Assembly (NCBI GenBank): GCA_965219535.1
Contig: CBDCNV010000001.1
Span: 1,560,001-1,592,000 of the forward strand
Reading direction: 5' to 3'
Source: Opitutales bacterium
Lineage (GTDB): Bacteria; Verrucomicrobiota; Verrucomicrobiia; Opitutales; PNEW01
Length of the DNA stretch: 32,000 nt
The position numbers were made by a program, and so were the translations under genes. The notes beneath the pieces were generated by a model, which was not told the origin of the DNA, ran no database searches, and saw only the letters and a program-made list of their open reading frames with translations. Below are positions 7,784 through 27,676 of this stretch, in pieces. Each line of letters begins with the position of its first letter. Positions within the stretch are counted from its first letter, which is position 1.

Positions 7784-8626
7784 TTAAACGCGATTCCAAC
7801 GACTGGGATTGATTCCGCCTGCTTCACTCGGCATGTCAGGGTGGATGTTGCCCGCATCGGGTTTCCAGATTCGCGTATTCAAGTCTCCCATGTATGCCTG
7901 TACTTCCAGAGGGAGCGTTGCGACTTTTTCCCGGTCTCTAGACTTAATCTCATTTATCGGACCAGCCCACGAGGGACGGTAACTAATTATTAGCACTTCT
8001 CGCGGTCTATCCCCGACGTTAGGAAAATTACCGTGAAAACAATACATATTAAAAATAATCGCAGAACCAGCCTTACAAGTAATCATGACTTGCTCAGGAT
8101 GATCCTTGTAACGAAGGTAGGGATTCGCCTGATTATGAAAGCTGAGGTGTGTGCGAGGGATAATACGGAAAGGAGAAATCTCCGGGGTAAGATCGTCCAG
8201 ATAGTAGAGAACACGAACCATTTTGGGACAGCTGAGCGCGTCACTGAATTCATTCGACCCATAATTCATTGCATCACAATGAAAATTAATTCCCGGGTGT
8301 CCCGGCTCGGACCGTGAATAGGTGTATTGCATCATGATGATCTCATCGCCGCAAAGCGCCTTCAAGAAGTCAGTGGTTGGCGGATGAACAATGAGATCGG
8401 TAAATACACCACCCTTATATTCCAAGCCTTTTTTATCTAAAACGCGCTGTTTCTCACTGTAATCGACTTGCCTCGTCTGAAGCTTAGCAGTTTCAGTTTT
8501 CAGTTTTTTGACAAGATCAGGACTGAGGATATCCGGCATAACAACATAACCTTCGACTTCGAGGTGCTCGATCCTTTCCCCTAAAGTTAAATTCTCCCAA
8601 TCGGTATCGGGAATAGTATAGTTCAT
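7784..8626 (-). CDS. Phytanoyl-CoA dioxygenase (PhyH)-family Fe(II)/2-oxoglutarate oxygenase
   Basis: HxD motif in 'GINFHCDAMNYG' and a distal His in 'MYCFHGNFPNVGDRPREV'. I prefer the ATG at 8626 (MNYTIPDTDW...). The track start 8716 is a TTG that adds 30 non-conserved-looking residues. Confidence 0.8.
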   Translation of the reverse strand: MNYTIPDTDWENLTLGERIEHLEVEGYVVMPDILSPDLVKKLKTETAKLQTRQVDYSEKQRVLDKKGLEYKGGVFTDLIVHPPTTDFLKALCGDEIIMMQYTYSRSEPGHPGINFHCDAMNYGSNEFSDALSCPKMVRVLYYLDDLTPEISPFRIIPRTHLSFHNQANPYLRYKDHPEQVMITCKAGSAIIFNMYCFHGNFPNVGDRPREVLIISYRPSWAGPINEIKSRDREKVATLPLEVQAYMGDLNTRIWKPDAGNIHPDMPSEAGGINPSRWNRV

Positions 8627-8779
8627 AAAAAGGGTTAATACAAAATTGTCGATTGTGATGTCAAGCTGCGGCGCCTGGGTCTTAATACGATTACGACACC
8701 TGTAAGACGATAGCAAATCTCGACCAACCTGATCTTTAATTATACTTACTGGAGAACTTTAAACGCGGAAACTAAACAC

Positions 8780-9574
8780 TCACATGGGAACGTTTATCCT
8801 GACCGGTTGCGCAAGTCTGAATTCGAGCAAAGTATTCGGTGGTAATTGAACAGGTTTACCCGGAGTAATAAGCGCGACACCAGTTCCAATAGCGGCTCCT
8901 TTTAACGCACCGCCACCTCTATCATTCTTATCGATAAGTGCACCGAGGAGGGCACCGGCGCCTATTGCGTGCAGGGTTCCTTTCGTAGCGTCTTTACCGC
9001 GTTCAATATGATCAGTTGTAAAGATAGGATATAGTTTTTCATTAATTTCCATCTCAGACAGTCCAATATCTACTGAAGAAGTACCTGCGATCCTTCCCGC
9101 TTGTTTGGACCGTTGTAATATGCCGTATACAAGTGAACCTTCATTTGCAACGAGGGTATCACCGACATATAGATCTGCCGCTAAGCGGGCTCTGAATTTT
9201 TGTCCGGCTTTGTCTGTCCTTGTGTCTATGCTGTCAACGAGTGTTACCATAATGCTTGTCCCTGCGGGTATGGTTACACTTTTAATTTTTGTTACGCTTG
9301 GTGCATAGGACGCACTTGAATCATAAGAGGGACGAGAATAACTGGTGCTACTTTCAGATCCCGCGCTCGCCGAACCAGAAAATGTTAATGCCAGAGCTTC
9401 ATTTTTTGATATGACTTCCACCTTATCACCGACTTGAAACCGTATGGTTTGTTGTGTTCCTCCCAGGTATTTGCCGTTGAGCACTTTACCGTTTTTCAAT
9501 TCAAGAACATCCGCTTGGGCTGAAAGCACTGCGATGAAACATGCGGTTAAAATTTTGATTAATATTTTTTTCAT
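8780..9574 (-). CDS. Secreted protein of unknown function with C-terminal glycine-zipper segment
   Basis: Signal peptide 'MKKILIKILTACFIAVLSAQA', followed by a Ser-rich linker 'SGSASAGSESSTSYSRPSYDSSASY'. Then comes the block 'IPAGTSIMVTLVDSIDTRTDKAGQKFRARLAADLYVGDTLVANEGSLVYG' and the Gly-zipper 'GAGALLGALIDKNDRGGGALKGAAIGTGVALI'. Confidence 0.75.
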   Translation of the reverse strand: MKKILIKILTACFIAVLSAQADVLELKNGKVLNGKYLGGTQQTIRFQVGDKVEVISKNEALALTFSGSASAGSESSTSYSRPSYDSSASYAPSVTKIKSVTIPAGTSIMVTLVDSIDTRTDKAGQKFRARLAADLYVGDTLVANEGSLVYGILQRSKQAGRIAGTSSVDIGLSEMEINEKLYPIFTTDHIERGKDATKGTLHAIGAGALLGALIDKNDRGGGALKGAAIGTGVALITPGKPVQLPPNTLLEFRLAQPVRINVPM

Positions 9575-9678: not shown

Positions 9679-11229
9679 CTAAAATGTAACTTCTTCAGTG
9701 TTAATTGTTATTGTAGTCCCGTCAGTGTTGATGAATGTTGCGTTCGCGCTCTGCGTCGGCTGGGGCGTAAAATCAGATTTGAAATTATTTTGTGAGATCA
9801 AAGTTTCAAATCCAGGTGTCGTCGATCCGCTTGGGGCGATGACAATCGAGGTACCATTTGTTTGCAGGAGATCGCCGCCGGTTATTCTTAATCCGGGATT
9901 TCCCGCCGCCACAGTGAACGAGCCCGTTCCAAAGAGCAGGTGGGGGACCGCATCTCCGCTTGCATCAATGTCACCCACAGTCAATCTTACCGCGATCGGT
10001 ACACCTTCAGCTACTATTCCAGTTCTTCCCGTAGTCCCGGAAAAAAACGTATTCGATAACTGCATCCCACCCATTCCAGAAGAATTAACAACTTCGACTA
10101 AGCTTACATCAGCCTGAGCGTCATAGACCTGCCCCTCGGGGAACAAGGCCTGGTTAACCGCGTTAATTGATCCTACGGTGAAGATACTGAAGAAAGTATT
10201 GGCGTCTGCTCCATCGATGAGCACGCTGGGTTTACCCGTCACGTATTCTACTGCTTGGTTGTAGCGCGGTGGTACCGCAGGTGGGAGAAAAGTTGCCGGA
10301 TCAAGATTGACCGTAAAGGTCCCATTACCCGAGAACTCTACCTGCACAATATCCTCGTTTTCGTCCATAAATGATACCCGGGTAATCTGATTTTCCTTGG
10401 CGCGTAGTTTTACGCTCTGGCCGGTGAGCAGAACCTGATCAAAGACGTTACCGCTGGGATGTTGTATATCTTCACCGACGACATCACCCAACCCTTCAAG
10501 AACGAGATCGGATACAGCGGGAGGTTCAGCGCCGGCGGAAAAATCAATGGTCAATTTTGGGCGACTTCCCGTGCTGCTATTTTCCCTACTGCCAAAAATA
10601 GTCGCTGCCCCGAATGCTGATTCATCGACGAGAATAATCCATCCAAAGTTTTGTTCAGGATTATCCACCCAATTTTGAACGTCCGCTATTAAGTTTGGCG
10701 AACTCCAGGTTATAGGACCCGATGATGACAGCGGTTGTGTTGCCGAGGGTGTGTTTACAAAATTACCCCCTTCAATCTGCCAATTTTCTGTATTGAAAAA
10801 CGAGAAATTCCAAGTGACGTCTCCTGTGGAAGGAGATCCACCAAGACCTGTTCCCAACGAGGCGCCTTCACCCCAATCCTGAATTAAGCGATGCAGGAAA
10901 ACATCGACAGAACTGCCAACAGTTGCGGGGCCACGTCTGCTCACATTCAAAGTTATTGAAACGTTTTCAATAGAAGCACCACTGGGAATGTTACCCGTTA
11001 GATCAAATTGCATTAAAGCCCGGCGTGTTCCCGCACCCTGTCTCCCCTGCGTTCTCCCCGAAAAGAGATCACCGTCACCGTTGCTGTTATTATTTTCAGA
11101 ATATATAGAATTATCCTTTGTCGCGTCCAAAGTTATTGTATCGGCCAAAGACGGAAGGAGTAAACCGAATGTTGGGAACAAGAACAATAATAGAACACGG
11201 CTGACGAGAGAATTATTTTGAGTATACAT
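9679..11229 (-). CDS. Secreted protein: DNRLRE-like beta-sandwich N-terminal half plus unassigned ~277-aa C-terminal module (paralog 1)
   Basis: Signal peptide 'VLLLFLFPTFGLLLPSLA'. Motifs 'KDNSIYSEN', 'RRALMQFDLTGNIPSGASIENVS' and 'PEQNFGWIILVDES'. The C-terminal 276 aa are shared with the ORFs at 11411-12991 and 23135-25699. Confidence 0.85.
   Translation of the reverse strand: MYTQNNSLVSRVLLLFLFPTFGLLLPSLADTITLDATKDNSIYSENNNSNGDGDLFSGRTQGRQGAGTRRALMQFDLTGNIPSGASIENVSITLNVSRRGPATVGSSVDVFLHRLIQDWGEGASLGTGLGGSPSTGDVTWNFSFFNTENWQIEGGNFVNTPSATQPLSSSGPITWSSPNLIADVQNWVDNPEQNFGWIILVDESAFGAATIFGSRENSSTGSRPKLTIDFSAGAEPPAVSDLVLEGLGDVVGEDIQHPSGNVFDQVLLTGQSVKLRAKENQITRVSFMDENEDIVQVEFSGNGTFTVNLDPATFLPPAVPPRYNQAVEYVTGKPSVLIDGADANTFFSIFTVGSINAVNQALFPEGQVYDAQADVSLVEVVNSSGMGGMQLSNTFFSGTTGRTGIVAEGVPIAVRLTVGDIDASGDAVPHLLFGTGSFTVAAGNPGLRITGGDLLQTNGTSIVIAPSGSTTPGFETLISQNNFKSDFTPQPTQSANATFINTDGTTITINTEEVTF
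9682..10509 (-). other. Shared C-terminal module, copy 1 (residues ~241-516)
   Basis: Aligns end to end with the C-termini encoded at 11414-12244 and 23138-23968. Example blocks are 'ITRVSFMDENEDIVQVEFSGNG', 'GDIDASGDAVPHLLFG' and 'GLRITGGDLLQTNGTSIV'. Confidence 0.8.
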
Positions 11230-11410: not shown

Positions 11411-12991
11411 CTAAAATGTAATTTCCACAGTTGCTATTGATAATGGCGTTCCATCAGAGTTGATGAAAGTTGCATTTATGCTCTGCGTGGGCTGTGGTGT
11501 ATTATCAGACTTAAAATTGTTTTGTGAGAACAGGGTTTCGAAGCCCGGGGTCGTCGATCCACTCGGGGCGACAACAATCGAAGCGCCATTCGTTTGCAGT
11601 AAATCGCCACCTGTAATTCTCAATCCGGTCATACCCACAGCGGGCAATGTAAACGAACCCGTTCCAAAGAGCAGGTGCGGAACCGCGTCTCCGCTCGCAT
11701 CAATGTCACCCACTGTTAAGCGCACACCGATTGTGATACCTTCGGCGTTTACCCCTGTCTTCCCCGTGCTTGCAGAGAACACGGTGTTCGATAGTTGCAT
11801 ACCTCCTATACCCATAGAATTGATGACTTCGACCAGGGTTACATCTGCTTGCGCATCATAGACGACTCCATCCGGGAACAAAGCCTGATTTACAGCATTG
11901 ATACGGCCTACAGTAAAGATACTGAAAAAAGTGTTCGCATCCGCATCTTCTATAACCACGCTGGGTCGGCCTGTTACATACTCTACCTGTTGATTGTATT
12001 TCGTCGGAAATGCCGGAGGTTGAAAGGAAGCTGCATCAAAGTTAAGGGTAAAGGCGCCATTACCAGAAAATTCCACCTGGACGATATCTTCGTTCTCGTC
12101 GAGAAAGGAAACTCGCGTGATCTGGTTTTCTCTCGCTCGCAGTTTTATGTTCTGCCCGGTGAGAAGAACCTGATTAAAAATGTTACCACTGGGGTGCACA
12201 ATTGCTTCACCCACTACGGTTCCCGAACCTTCAAGGATAAGATCCTGCTCAAGCGGAGGTTCACCGTCAGTTGAATATTCAACCGTGAGTTTCGGTCGAT
12301 TATCGACCTGGCTGCTCTCTCGACTTAAAAATCTGATCGCCCCGCCGAATACTGATTCATCGACAATAAAAATCCATCCAAAGTTTTGTTCGGGGTCATC
12401 TACCCACCCTTGAACATCCGAGACCAGGGTGGGGGAATTCCAAGTCAAAAACGCGGGCGCGACTTCCGTTACGATCTGAGTCGCTGAAGGAATATTTTCA
12501 TAATTACCTCCAGGGACGAACCAATTTTCCGAATCAAAAAAGCTGAAGTGCCAAGTGGCGTCACCGGGTTGGGGCAATTCTCCCATTCCTAATTCAACTT
12601 CAGAATTACCGGTTTCTCCCCAGTCCTGAAGTAATCGGTGTAAAAAAGTATCTACTTCCGTCCCTTCAGATATCGGACCGCGCCGATCATAAAAAACAGA
12701 AAGGGATACATTTTCAATAACGGCTCCACTGGGAACACTCCCGGTGAGATCGAATTGAATCAACGCGCGCCGACTACCGAATATCGTTCCATCAATAGTT
12801 CTTCCCTGGGTGTTCCCTGAAAATAGAAATCCCCGACCATTACTGTTATTGTTCTCTGAGAAGATGGTATTATCTTTAGCGGTTTCGAGGATAACGGTAT
12901 CGCCTCTTAAGGGCGTTGATAATCCCAATATTAAAAATGAAGATAAAATATAAAGTAGGGCGCGCTGAAAGGTGAATTTATGAAAATACAT
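11411..12991 (-). CDS. Secreted protein: DNRLRE-like N-terminal half plus unassigned ~277-aa C-terminal module (paralog 2)
   Basis: ATG at 12991; the track start 12994 is a GTG one codon upstream. Signal peptide 'ALLYILSSFLILGLSTPLRG'. The protein is collinear with the 9679-11229 product over its full length. Confidence 0.85.
   Translation of the reverse strand: MYFHKFTFQRALLYILSSFLILGLSTPLRGDTVILETAKDNTIFSENNNSNGRGFLFSGNTQGRTIDGTIFGSRRALIQFDLTGSVPSGAVIENVSLSVFYDRRGPISEGTEVDTFLHRLLQDWGETGNSEVELGMGELPQPGDATWHFSFFDSENWFVPGGNYENIPSATQIVTEVAPAFLTWNSPTLVSDVQGWVDDPEQNFGWIFIVDESVFGGAIRFLSRESSQVDNRPKLTVEYSTDGEPPLEQDLILEGSGTVVGEAIVHPSGNIFNQVLLTGQNIKLRARENQITRVSFLDENEDIVQVEFSGNGAFTLNFDAASFQPPAFPTKYNQQVEYVTGRPSVVIEDADANTFFSIFTVGRINAVNQALFPDGVVYDAQADVTLVEVINSMGIGGMQLSNTVFSASTGKTGVNAEGITIGVRLTVGDIDASGDAVPHLLFGTGSFTLPAVGMTGLRITGGDLLQTNGASIVVAPSGSTTPGFETLFSQNNFKSDNTPQPTQSINATFINSDGTPLSIATVEITF
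11414..12244 (-). other. Shared C-terminal module, copy 2 (residues ~251-527)
   Basis: Blocks 'ITRVSFLDENEDIVQVEFSGNG', 'GDIDASGDAVPHLLFG' and 'GLRITGGDLLQTNGASIV'. By eye it is about three-quarters identical to copy 1. Confidence 0.8.
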
Positions 12992-13151
12992 CACTTAAAC
13001 ATACTTTATACTGAAAGAATGATCACGCACTCAATAGGATTGTATAAAATTGGAGTAATCCAATTGATATAATGTTCCCTCATTAAAAGCATTATACTTA
13101 ATTTAAATTAAGGATATAATATCATCAATCATCCATTAAAGGTGGATGTTC

Positions 13152-25760: not shown

Positions 25761-26969
25761 TTAATAACCGCCTCTTTCCGCGGATGAAATAGTGTCATGT
25801 AAGCGTGTAATCAGGATTTCAAGTTGCGGTATCAAATGTCGGTAGCGGCTATCGGTCAGCCAGTCTTCAGCTTGACCCAGGCTGGCTCGATCAATCTGAG
25901 CCATTTCACTTAATGTATAGGTGTGATTCTCAGTCAGCAAGTTGTTGGACATTATCAAATTGAAGTTGGGAAACAATTTGGCGAAGGTCTCAGCTTCTTC
26001 AGGTGAGAGGTTGGGTTGCGCTAAATAGCTTTCTACTAATTTCCCCTGGCTTGAATTTGAGACGTTCGCGCGGGAAAAAAAACCCGCGCGTGTATGAGGG
26101 CGATCAGCTAAGAGATCGGGGTTCTCTAAAAAAAAGTTCAATGCCGGTGCGGGGTTGTCGAGAATCAATTTATCCATCGCCATAATCGCGGCGTGTGAAA
26201 GTATGTCCGAATTCTCTCGATCCAACATGGCCGTAAATTCAGAAATGAGCGATGACGATTGAGTGTAAACAGCGACGTCAAAACTATGAAGGAATCCCGC
26301 ACTTGGATTTTCCAGCCAGGGTTCATGGGTTAATGCTGCAAATATTTTTTCCTTTAGCAGAGGGACACCACGGGATTCAGGATTATTCCACGCGACATTG
26401 CGTAGCGATATGGCCCACTCGTCAGCAGATTTTTTTGTCGCAAAAACCTGATCCGCGTAGTCCGCCGCCATCGGGGGATTAATAATTCCCAGTACATCGA
26501 TTAGAGTGACGCGAAAAGTAGGGGATGCAGAGAGAAAACCTCTTTTATCAACGTAAAAACCGTAGCCCGTTTCCACATCCAGGCCCAACTCGAGGAATTG
26601 AAGAATGGCTTTGGCATTTTCGTTCGACGGATCAGAAATTAATTTTTTTCGTAAACTAATGATTAGGTTATTTCTCGTTTTCGGATTTGGATTCGCGATA
26701 ATATTTTCATATGTCTCATTGATCAGGTTAAATCGTAGTTGCAGCGTATTGTTAATTTCACCTTCAGTAATATCGGGAACTCCTTCAAGTTTCGTAACCG
26801 TATCTACCTTGTCCGGATGAATATTACTTTCTTGCACAGCTTGTATTTCAGAAACACTACGCGTTTGTCGACGATCATTACCGCGGTGACTGAATACAAA
26901 CCAGACCCCAGTTATGATGATTAAAGTGAGGCCAGAAATTGCGGCTATGGTTATGCGCTTATGAAGCAT
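25761..26969 (-). CDS. Membrane-anchored protein of unknown function (single N-terminal TM, helical-looking ectodomain)
   Basis: TM segment 'ITIAAISGLTLIIITGVWFVF'; I see no recognisable catalytic motif. The start is either the ATG at 26969 (MLHKR...) or the TTG at 26999. It lies 61 nt upstream of, and co-directional with, the protease gene. Confidence 0.7.
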   Translation of the reverse strand: MLHKRITIAAISGLTLIIITGVWFVFSHRGNDRRQTRSVSEIQAVQESNIHPDKVDTVTKLEGVPDITEGEINNTLQLRFNLINETYENIIANPNPKTRNNLIISLRKKLISDPSNENAKAILQFLELGLDVETGYGFYVDKRGFLSASPTFRVTLIDVLGIINPPMAADYADQVFATKKSADEWAISLRNVAWNNPESRGVPLLKEKIFAALTHEPWLENPSAGFLHSFDVAVYTQSSSLISEFTAMLDRENSDILSHAAIMAMDKLILDNPAPALNFFLENPDLLADRPHTRAGFFSRANVSNSSQGKLVESYLAQPNLSPEEAETFAKLFPNFNLIMSNNLLTENHTYTLSEMAQIDRASLGQAEDWLTDSRYRHLIPQLEILITRLHDTISSAERGGY

Positions 26970-27676
26970 TTCTTTGCCGGATGATTCTGTATTATTCAAC
27001 TGTATTCAATTATAGTACGATTACAATTGTGAAGATACGCTAATCTACTGTGGCAGGTGTTGGGCAAATTTCCGACGGTGTGTTTTGGAATATTCGCTAT
27101 CTGGATTATTAGGCGAAGACATGTCCCTTATAAGATTTAAAACCCATGAAATACCTAACTGTTAAAAACTTGTAACTGATTGGTTAATAAAATGTTAAAT
27201 TGTAAAAATAGGGGCTTTAAAAGTTGCTAATAGGGTACAATCATAGTATAACTGATTTTAATACTTTATAATAAAAGCTTATGCTTGGCCTGGGGATTAC
27301 GCGTTTATCAATCAGTGACATGAAAGGAGCAAGCGATGGAAAACGAAATACAAGCTCAGTTGTTTAGCCTTTTGGGTATCGAAGCGAATAATTCTCACAT
27401 CTTAAAATGGGGGGTTCTGATTTGATGCGCTTACAAATGCAATATTACAACTCGTTTTTTTAAGACAAATCGAGAGGTGAAAGTTGGATAAATTATCCTG
27501 TGGATAACGCGGATAGAGCGCCGCGAAAAAGTGATTTTATCGAATGGGATTAGAGGCGAAATAGTATATTCACAATGAGACAATTACAAAAACTTGACAA
27601 AGATTAATCTGGGTTCTGAATAGCGAATAATTATCAAAAAGCTTACCTGAAATTCGTGTATAATTATTAGTTGAAA

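Follow-up and report, generated by a model that had tools for sequence, protein, structure and literature searches.

Three secreted proteins with a common C-terminal module

The stretch of DNA analysed here (the window) comprises 32,000 nucleotides of the Opitutales bacterium contig CBDCNV010000001.1 and contains three genes whose products end in the same module of about 276 residues. An initial annotation, made from the sequence alone, had described this module as a portable unit of ~277 amino acids (aa) behind unrelated N-terminal domains, and our analysis agrees with that description. The three open reading frames (ORFs) are found on the minus strand where they had been proposed, at 9679-11229 (protein 1, 516 aa), 11411-12994 (protein 2, 527 aa) and 23135-25699 (protein 3, 854 aa), except that the second begins with a GTG at 12994, one codon 5' of the ATG at 12991 that had been taken as its start. 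The module forms the C-terminal end of each protein as copy 1 (9682..10509, minus strand, 276 aa), copy 2 (11414..12244, minus strand, 277 aa) and copy 3 (23138..23968, minus strand, 277 aa). These copies align end to end with just two small gaps and over 140 invariant columns, copy 2 being 79% and copy 3 56% identical to copy 1, and every conserved block quoted in the initial annotation is present in the alignment. A tblastn search of the window with copy 1 returned 10509-9682, 12244-11414 (E 9e-143) and 23971-23150 (E 8e-99) and nothing beyond these three stretches. Judged by sequence, the likeness of the three proteins in this region is far beyond chance.

Upstream of the module the proteins carry other domains. 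In protein 1 this part (10510..11229, minus strand) consists of a signal peptide, a DNRLRE domain that resembles the carbohydrate-binding module (CBM) family CBM96, and a Pro-rich linker; NF033679 (DNRLRE) matches residues 39-228 with 60 bits, and within this region PF24517 (CBM96) matches residues 133-228 with 28.2 bits. Protein 2 has a signal peptide and a DNRLRE domain (12245..12994, minus strand; NF033679, 56.5 bits), so that both proteins exceed the curated cut-off of 34 for this family, and the two are 55% identical in the N-terminal part and 79% in the module. Protein 3 combines a signal peptide with a trypsin-like region, PPC and CARDB (23969..25699, minus strand). The initial annotation had named DNRLRE-like domains in two proteins and an S1 protease, PPC and CARDB in the third; DNRLRE and CARDB (28.5 bits against a gathering score of 22.7) are borne out directly, whereas PPC (19.8 bits) and Trypsin_2 (16.8 bits) fall under the Pfam thresholds. 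Since Trypsin_2, PPC and CARDB were all found again in relatives, the weak assignments in protein 3 are nonetheless backed. The signal peptides ascribed to all three proteins are visible in the translations as signal-peptide-like N-termini. The DNA of all three modules also holds antisense ORFs of 120-139 aa on the plus strand (9698-10117, 11460-11861 and 23804-24166), which are most simply regarded as shadow ORFs of a conserved coding region and not as genes.

Family size, architectures and constraint

An exhaustive HMMER scan over 1.84 billion 50%-identity representatives placed 744 clusters in the module family at E<=1e-3 and 532 at E<=1e-30, and tblastn confirmed 320 module stretches in a set with one genome per GTDB species. 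The best 80 of these 320 all came from two Opitutales metagenome-assembled genomes (MAGs). The count of bearers that the initial annotation had suggested came to no fewer than 55 complete modules in OY829953.1 (4.49 Mb) and 48 in CBDANS01, both lower bounds because they represent distinct ORFs in the fetched loci. With at least 55 copies in 4.49 Mb, some Opitutales genomes would carry the module in more than 1% of their genes. The genes are often arranged in head-to-tail arrays of three to five paralogs, sometimes beside IS3-type transposase fragments (L023, L026, L069, L067 and others), which suggests expansion by tandem duplication. Distant members with 30-45% identity keep the whole domain, including its terminal segment of ~45 aa. 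A mobile-element or phage origin was rejected because searches of PLSDB plasmids, INPHARED phages and IMG/VR did not find the module.

The window shares 96.6-97.6% DNA identity with L001, a contig of 5.05 Mb from a public metagenome assembly, and copy 1 is 97% identical in protein sequence to a locus in OY829953.1, deposited as 'MAG: Opitutales bacterium', which assigns the window to an Opitutales bacterium (Verrucomicrobiota). In L001 (9441-10989) the 516-aa gene is split into pieces of 179, 217 and 99 aa, unlike the window gene at 9679-11229, presumably because of indel errors in long reads, and many of the database 'relatives' whose sequence begins within a domain are fragments of this kind.

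The module is a discrete unit with sharp boundaries: it follows immediately on a signal peptide or a Pro-rich linker, and as a rule only 0-3 residues separate its end from the stop codon. Among 258 relatives it is C-terminal in 174, followed by 16-49 residues in 28 and by at least 50 residues in 56 (~22%); in the two Opitutales genomes 106 of the 107 complete copies are C-terminal. The constant C-terminal position postulated in the initial annotation therefore holds for the majority, but not for the family as a whole. In some of the 258 relatives the module directly follows the signal peptide and is itself followed by 110-980 residues, seven contain two or three matched module stretches, and some proteins carry a copy at both ends. 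Others consist of a signal peptide and the module alone, and this stand-alone form is shared by several Opitutales genomes, among them a contig nearly identical to the window, as a single cluster at 90% identity.

A recurrent small architecture has a signal peptide, the module and a tail of ~135 aa ending in 'GTFEQL' (P0085, residues ~298-430; also P0057, P0061, P0082, P0094, P0110, P0113, P0069 and P0079). This tail was modelled with a predicted local distance difference test score (pLDDT) of ~90 as an antiparallel barrel of 8-9 strands plus a single helix; in Foldseek it groups weakly with calycin-, avidin- and nitrobindin-like barrels. Four metagenomic proteins of 750-1230 aa (P0190, P0227, P0229 and P0252) begin with a basic segment and '...LE(A/S)LE(Q/R)RQLLA', with the module from about residue 30; this motif, present as '...LEQRQLLA' at the N-terminus of some distant members, may correspond to an export-type signature associated with Planctomycetes.

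Most bearers of the module are predicted to be exported, since an N-terminus resembling a signal peptide was seen in 60 of 65 full-length Opitutales paralogs and in 90 of 109 representatives. Their partner domains are diverse. Those seen among 72 representatives include Ig_3 (22 of the 72), I-set, He_PIG, Peptidase_S8 (with I9), Trypsin_2, PPC and CARDB, as well as FG-GAP, NHL, beta-lactamase, fn3, CAP and SBBP; the two Opitutales genomes add CAP with CarboxypepD_reg, FG-GAP, RCC1 and PQQ propellers. In the subtilase- and trypsin-type proteins the module fills the slot that is normal for anchoring or accessory domains. This array of partners in proteins with Sec signals fits the portability first proposed. 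The dominant form in the two genomes is a protein of ~740 aa with a signal peptide, an N-domain of ~350 aa, Ig_7 and the module. It belongs to a family with dozens of paralogs per genome, whose N-terminal region begins '...ALPQDLEVFTDFEDISGEG' (L005-L072, e.g. L010:4603-5736, plus strand). The N-domain had no Pfam, NCBIfam or PDB match and is thus a second unannotated domain or domain pair.

The constraint acting on the module is much stronger than that on its passengers. An alignment of 56 paralogs of the 740-aa type shows the highest column identity in the module (~0.9), a lower one in the Ig domain (~0.75) and the lowest in the N-domain (0.35-0.65). Within-genome pairs, compared by the Nei-Gojobori method, gave pN 0.051 and pS 0.54 (dS ~1) for the module, corresponding to a dN/dS of ~0.05, against pN 0.33 and a saturated pS for the N-domain. 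Mean module identity is 87.9% within genomes and 87.6% between genomes. Recent gene conversion was considered as the source of this uniformity and rejected, because synonymous divergence is high and identity is equal within and between genomes; for the same reasons, the uniformity reflects strong purifying selection on every copy. Four polar residues are conserved family-wide (R44, D49, D53 and Q216) and D24, Y83, Q85, Y89, Y129, D134, N153 and N218 are nearly invariant, a sequence pattern that suggests a defined binding or metal site. The hairpin loop D49-x-N-x-D53 is a possible Ca2+ site.

Comparison with known domains and possible function

The initial annotation was not able to place the module in any named family, and our searches lead to the same result. 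Neither Pfam (2025 copy) nor NCBIfam (2026 copy) matched the module region of the three window proteins, and 19 diverse modules scanned singly, with cut-offs of E<=10 for Pfam and E<=1 for NCBIfam, gave no family, the best E values (0.009-0.03) being spread over unrelated families. A three-sequence profile was negative against PDB sequences. The best match of a module-only profile of 19 sequences, a PDB sushi domain with E 0.03, was judged spurious, and the PDB match of a profile made from full-length relatives was confined to Ig columns upstream of the module. A likeness to PL7 alginate lyases, raised by a 'YNQ' motif, had no support from Pfam or Foldseek. Module proteins are annotated as hypothetical in every source, the cluster look-up for distant members giving 'hypothetical protein' and 'delta-60 repeat protein', and no description of the module was found in the literature searched.

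Structure prediction and a Foldseek search had also been suggested, and both were carried out. AlphaFold2, given an alignment of 54 sequences, returned a confident model of copy 1 (pLDDT 94.2, predicted template-modelling score 0.92) with ~20 strands and zero helices. Foldseek found for this model no neighbour and no barrel in PDB (best E 2.5, template-modelling (TM) score <0.13) and no neighbour in BFVD (best E 0.11, TM 0.23). A second model served as a positive control: the small C-terminal barrel of a relative was recognised as calycin-, avidin- or nitrobindin-like, with probabilities up to 1.0 and TM scores to the target of 0.45-0.55, and the module part of the same model was again without a match. 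An internal duplication or beta-solenoid repeat was also considered, as residues 44-70 and 175-200 look alike by eye only; hhalign of the module halves and a self-alignment with alternative alignments, based on a multiple alignment of 122 sequences, detected no repeat (best E 0.25). The family has no counterpart in Pfam, NCBIfam, PDB sequences or the searched literature, and its model no Foldseek neighbour. The concept is a familiar one, that of accessory or tether modules of secreted multidomain proteins.

The module had been set apart from the C-terminal domain (CTD) of the type IX secretion system (T9SS), SLH repeats, autotransporter beta-domains and PEP-CTERM, and the features tested for each of these systems uphold that separation. 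With the T9SS CTD (Por_Secre_tail) it has in common a constant, beta-rich make-up at the C-terminus behind variable passengers, Sec export and large cargo families per genome. However, the T9SS CTD is an Ig-like sandwich of ~70-100 aa that lies obligately at the extreme C-terminus, whereas the module has ~275 aa, is followed by at least 50 aa in 56 of the 258 relatives and also occurs N-terminally, in tandem and alone. The T9SS is characteristic of Bacteroidota, while the host here belongs to the Opitutales, and the T9SS CTD hidden Markov models (Por_Secre_tail, TIGR04183/PF18962) had no match at E<=1 in the three window proteins and none in the 19 diverse modules. As for PEP-CTERM, no PEP motif, hydrophobic helix or basic tail was seen at the C-termini, and there was no NCBIfam or Pfam match.

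An autotransporter (type V) beta-domain would agree with the module in its length of ~270 aa, its all-beta character and its usually C-terminal location, and ...VTF forms the C-terminus of two of the window's three proteins. However, PF03797 had no Pfam match in the window proteins or the 19 modules, Foldseek gave no barrel where a 12-stranded membrane barrel would be expected, the conserved positions are largely polar, and the tandem, N-terminal and stand-alone forms do not fit. The conserved aromatic end of a BAM beta-signal is missing as well: 66 of 71 Opitutales paralogs end in E and 42 of 101 distant members in P, and F is rare (3 of the 71 and 4 of the 101, respectively). Observed C-termini include ...EEVTF, ...EIEGP, ...TIE and ...VNP, and no C-terminal residue or motif is conserved across the family; the tails of relatives likewise showed no hydrophobic helix with a basic end, no PEP motif and no LPXTG. 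An outer membrane protein or autotransporter reading of the ...VTF ends was therefore rejected, since the Phe end is tied to the DNRLRE trio and Foldseek found no barrel neighbours.

The logic of SLH domains and dockerins comes closer. Like these, the module is a terminal unit, N- or C-terminal, on many unrelated secreted passengers, with dozens of bearers per genome; it is more conserved than its passengers, and it would be retained on the protein, unlike a short cleaved tag. The resemblance does not extend to sequence or structure. SLH domains are composed of three repeats of ~55 aa and are mainly helical, and dockerins have ~70 aa with two EF-hand-like loops, whereas the module is a single, non-repetitive all-beta domain of ~275 aa in a diderm host of the Planctomycetes-Verrucomicrobia-Chlamydiae (PVC) group. 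SLH (PF00395) and dockerin (PF00404) had no Pfam match in the window proteins or the 19 modules, no SLH-like internal repeat was detected by hhalign, and the size and all-beta secondary structure of the module are incompatible with a dockerin. CBMs such as CBM96/DNRLRE and CBM32 are also non-catalytic beta-domains with promiscuous fusion, sometimes in tandem, in polysaccharide-utilisation-type loci. The module differs from them in having no sequence or Foldseek similarity and mostly non-CAZyme (not carbohydrate-active enzyme) partners, and no curated CBM family in Pfam matched it, the sole CBM match being CBM96 in the N-terminal part of protein 1.

Taken as a tentative reading, to which we assign a probability of about 0.4, the module would be an autonomous, non-catalytic, all-beta extracytoplasmic domain for tethering or binding and not a cleaved sorting tag. 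The N-terminal signal peptide would direct each protein into Sec export, and the variable passenger (protease, DNRLRE/CBM96-like, Ig, beta-propeller, CAP or others) would perform the protein-specific task. The module itself would bind a single conserved target, which is most probably either part of the envelope of the producing cell or a common scaffold; in this way dozens of different proteins may be held at one place and their activities concentrated. Binding, the nature of the target and surface localisation are what we infer here, and a single shared interaction partner fits because the module is far more constrained than the passengers. By analogy, the tether logic may be nearer to that of SLH domains or dockerins than to that of a cleaved tag, occurrence at either terminus, in tandem or alone is reminiscent of binding modules such as SLH and CBMs, and the large copy number recalls dockerin, T9SS-CTD and PEP-CTERM cargo sets. 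A more elaborate version, in our view doubtful, would make the module the domain for both recognition and attachment in an undescribed system, specific to the PVC group, for surface display or outer-membrane targeting that gathers more than 50 different exoproteins per cell on a common receptor; in function it would then correspond to the T9SS CTD or the dockerin-cohesin pair, with a fold that has no solved relative.

How exported enzymes and binding proteins are retained and organised in Verrucomicrobiota and their relatives is poorly understood beyond PEP-CTERM. Definition of the family would provide an immediate annotation for hundreds of 'hypothetical' proteins, and should its fold be confirmed as new, the module would become a structural-genomics target. 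If the module is indeed a tether or targeting domain, it would open a way into the surface proteome of marine PVC bacteria that degrade polysaccharides, and possibly provide a new display scaffold.

Other explanations have to be weighed against a tether to the producer's own envelope. The initial annotation had left the choice between a domain for cell-surface attachment or secretion targeting and, as an alternative, a shared ligand-binding module; the results favour an autonomous domain for binding, tethering or assembly, in line with that alternative. A position-dependent sorting signal is weakened because the module also directly follows signal peptides, repeats, stands alone and has long tails in 56 of the 258 relatives. 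The notion of a C-terminal secretion or sorting domain of a dedicated, still undescribed PVC outer-membrane translocation or attachment pathway, analogous to the T9SS CTD, can appeal to the C-terminal majority (174 of the 258 relatives, and all but one of the 107 complete copies in the two Opitutales genomes), the pairing with Sec signal peptides and the large cargo-like set of paralogs. Yet with a module about three times the length of known CTDs, no family-wide C-terminal residue or motif and no recurrent transporter-like neighbour, we consider it very unlikely. An external target is a less remote thought, though still an unlikely one: as a lectin- or adhesin-type module akin to CBMs, the domain would direct its passengers to an algal or host glycan or to a particle surface. 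This would agree with the all-beta fold, the fusion to DNRLRE/CBM96-type domains, the conserved aromatic and polar residues, and the tandem and stand-alone forms typical of lectins and CBMs. The loci also contain many genes for sulfatases, SSF transporters, solute-binding proteins and sugar-acid enzymes. However, the partners are mostly proteases, Ig domains, propellers, CAP and beta-lactamase, similarity to CBM families is missing in Pfam and PDB, and ~55 near-identical copies would have to share one substrate.

Assembly of the bearers with each other is another explanation, and quite an improbable one in our estimation. Here the module would mediate homo- or hetero-oligomerisation, and its bearers would co-assemble, also with the stand-alone protein, into a surface lattice, fibre or complex. 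The conservation of the stand-alone protein as one 90%-identity cluster, the extreme sequence uniformity among paralogs and the copies at both ends of some proteins are all in line with this, but no structural or sequence likeness to pilins or S-layer proteins was found. We give just as little credence as to the sorting pathway to the module being itself an enzyme, with the Ig, CBM96, CARDB and propeller domains at the N-terminus as its accessory modules. Many of the partners are indeed classic accessory domains, and the very low dN/dS, the many invariant polar residues and the conserved stand-alone form could be expected of a catalytic domain. On the other hand, the partners include complete enzymes (S8 with its I9 prodomain, beta-lactamase and trypsin-like proteases), a genome has no evident use for 55 copies of the same catalytic domain, and no enzyme family or fold was matched.

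Genomic surroundings

The window genes around the modules are ordinary metabolic genes, and the window has no tRNA and no Rfam match. Across the loci no single constant neighbour of the module genes was found, and the genes that recur nearby (PhyH-like dioxygenases, SSS transporters, solute-binding proteins, large FG-GAP/VCBS proteins and insertion sequence fragments) vary in order and orientation. In overall gene content the loci resemble islands for the catabolism of sulfated or acidic sugars. The PhyH-like Fe(II)/2-oxoglutarate dioxygenases are the most conspicuous, with 38 ORFs in two clusters at 33 of 72 loci (L002-L072), an example in the window at 7784-8716 (minus strand), and four genes among the 17 of the 17-kb locus around a stand-alone member (L073). 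They were considered as a specific partner of the module, but are probably background, given that their position and orientation vary and PhyH genes are abundant in these genomes. Their frequency probably reflects a very expanded family in these Opitutales.

Two further ORFs adjoin the module genes. Immediately upstream of the gene for the 854-aa protein, a 412-aa ORF (25761-26999, minus strand) appears to encode a membrane helix at its N-terminus and matched no family. Directly downstream of the gene for protein 1, a 264-aa ORF (8780-9574, minus strand) has a signal-peptide-like start, a glycine-zipper-like stretch and a weak N-terminal match of the Lepto_7_Nterm type (30 bits, under the cut-off), and a 264-aa ORF is found at the equivalent position in L002 and L003.
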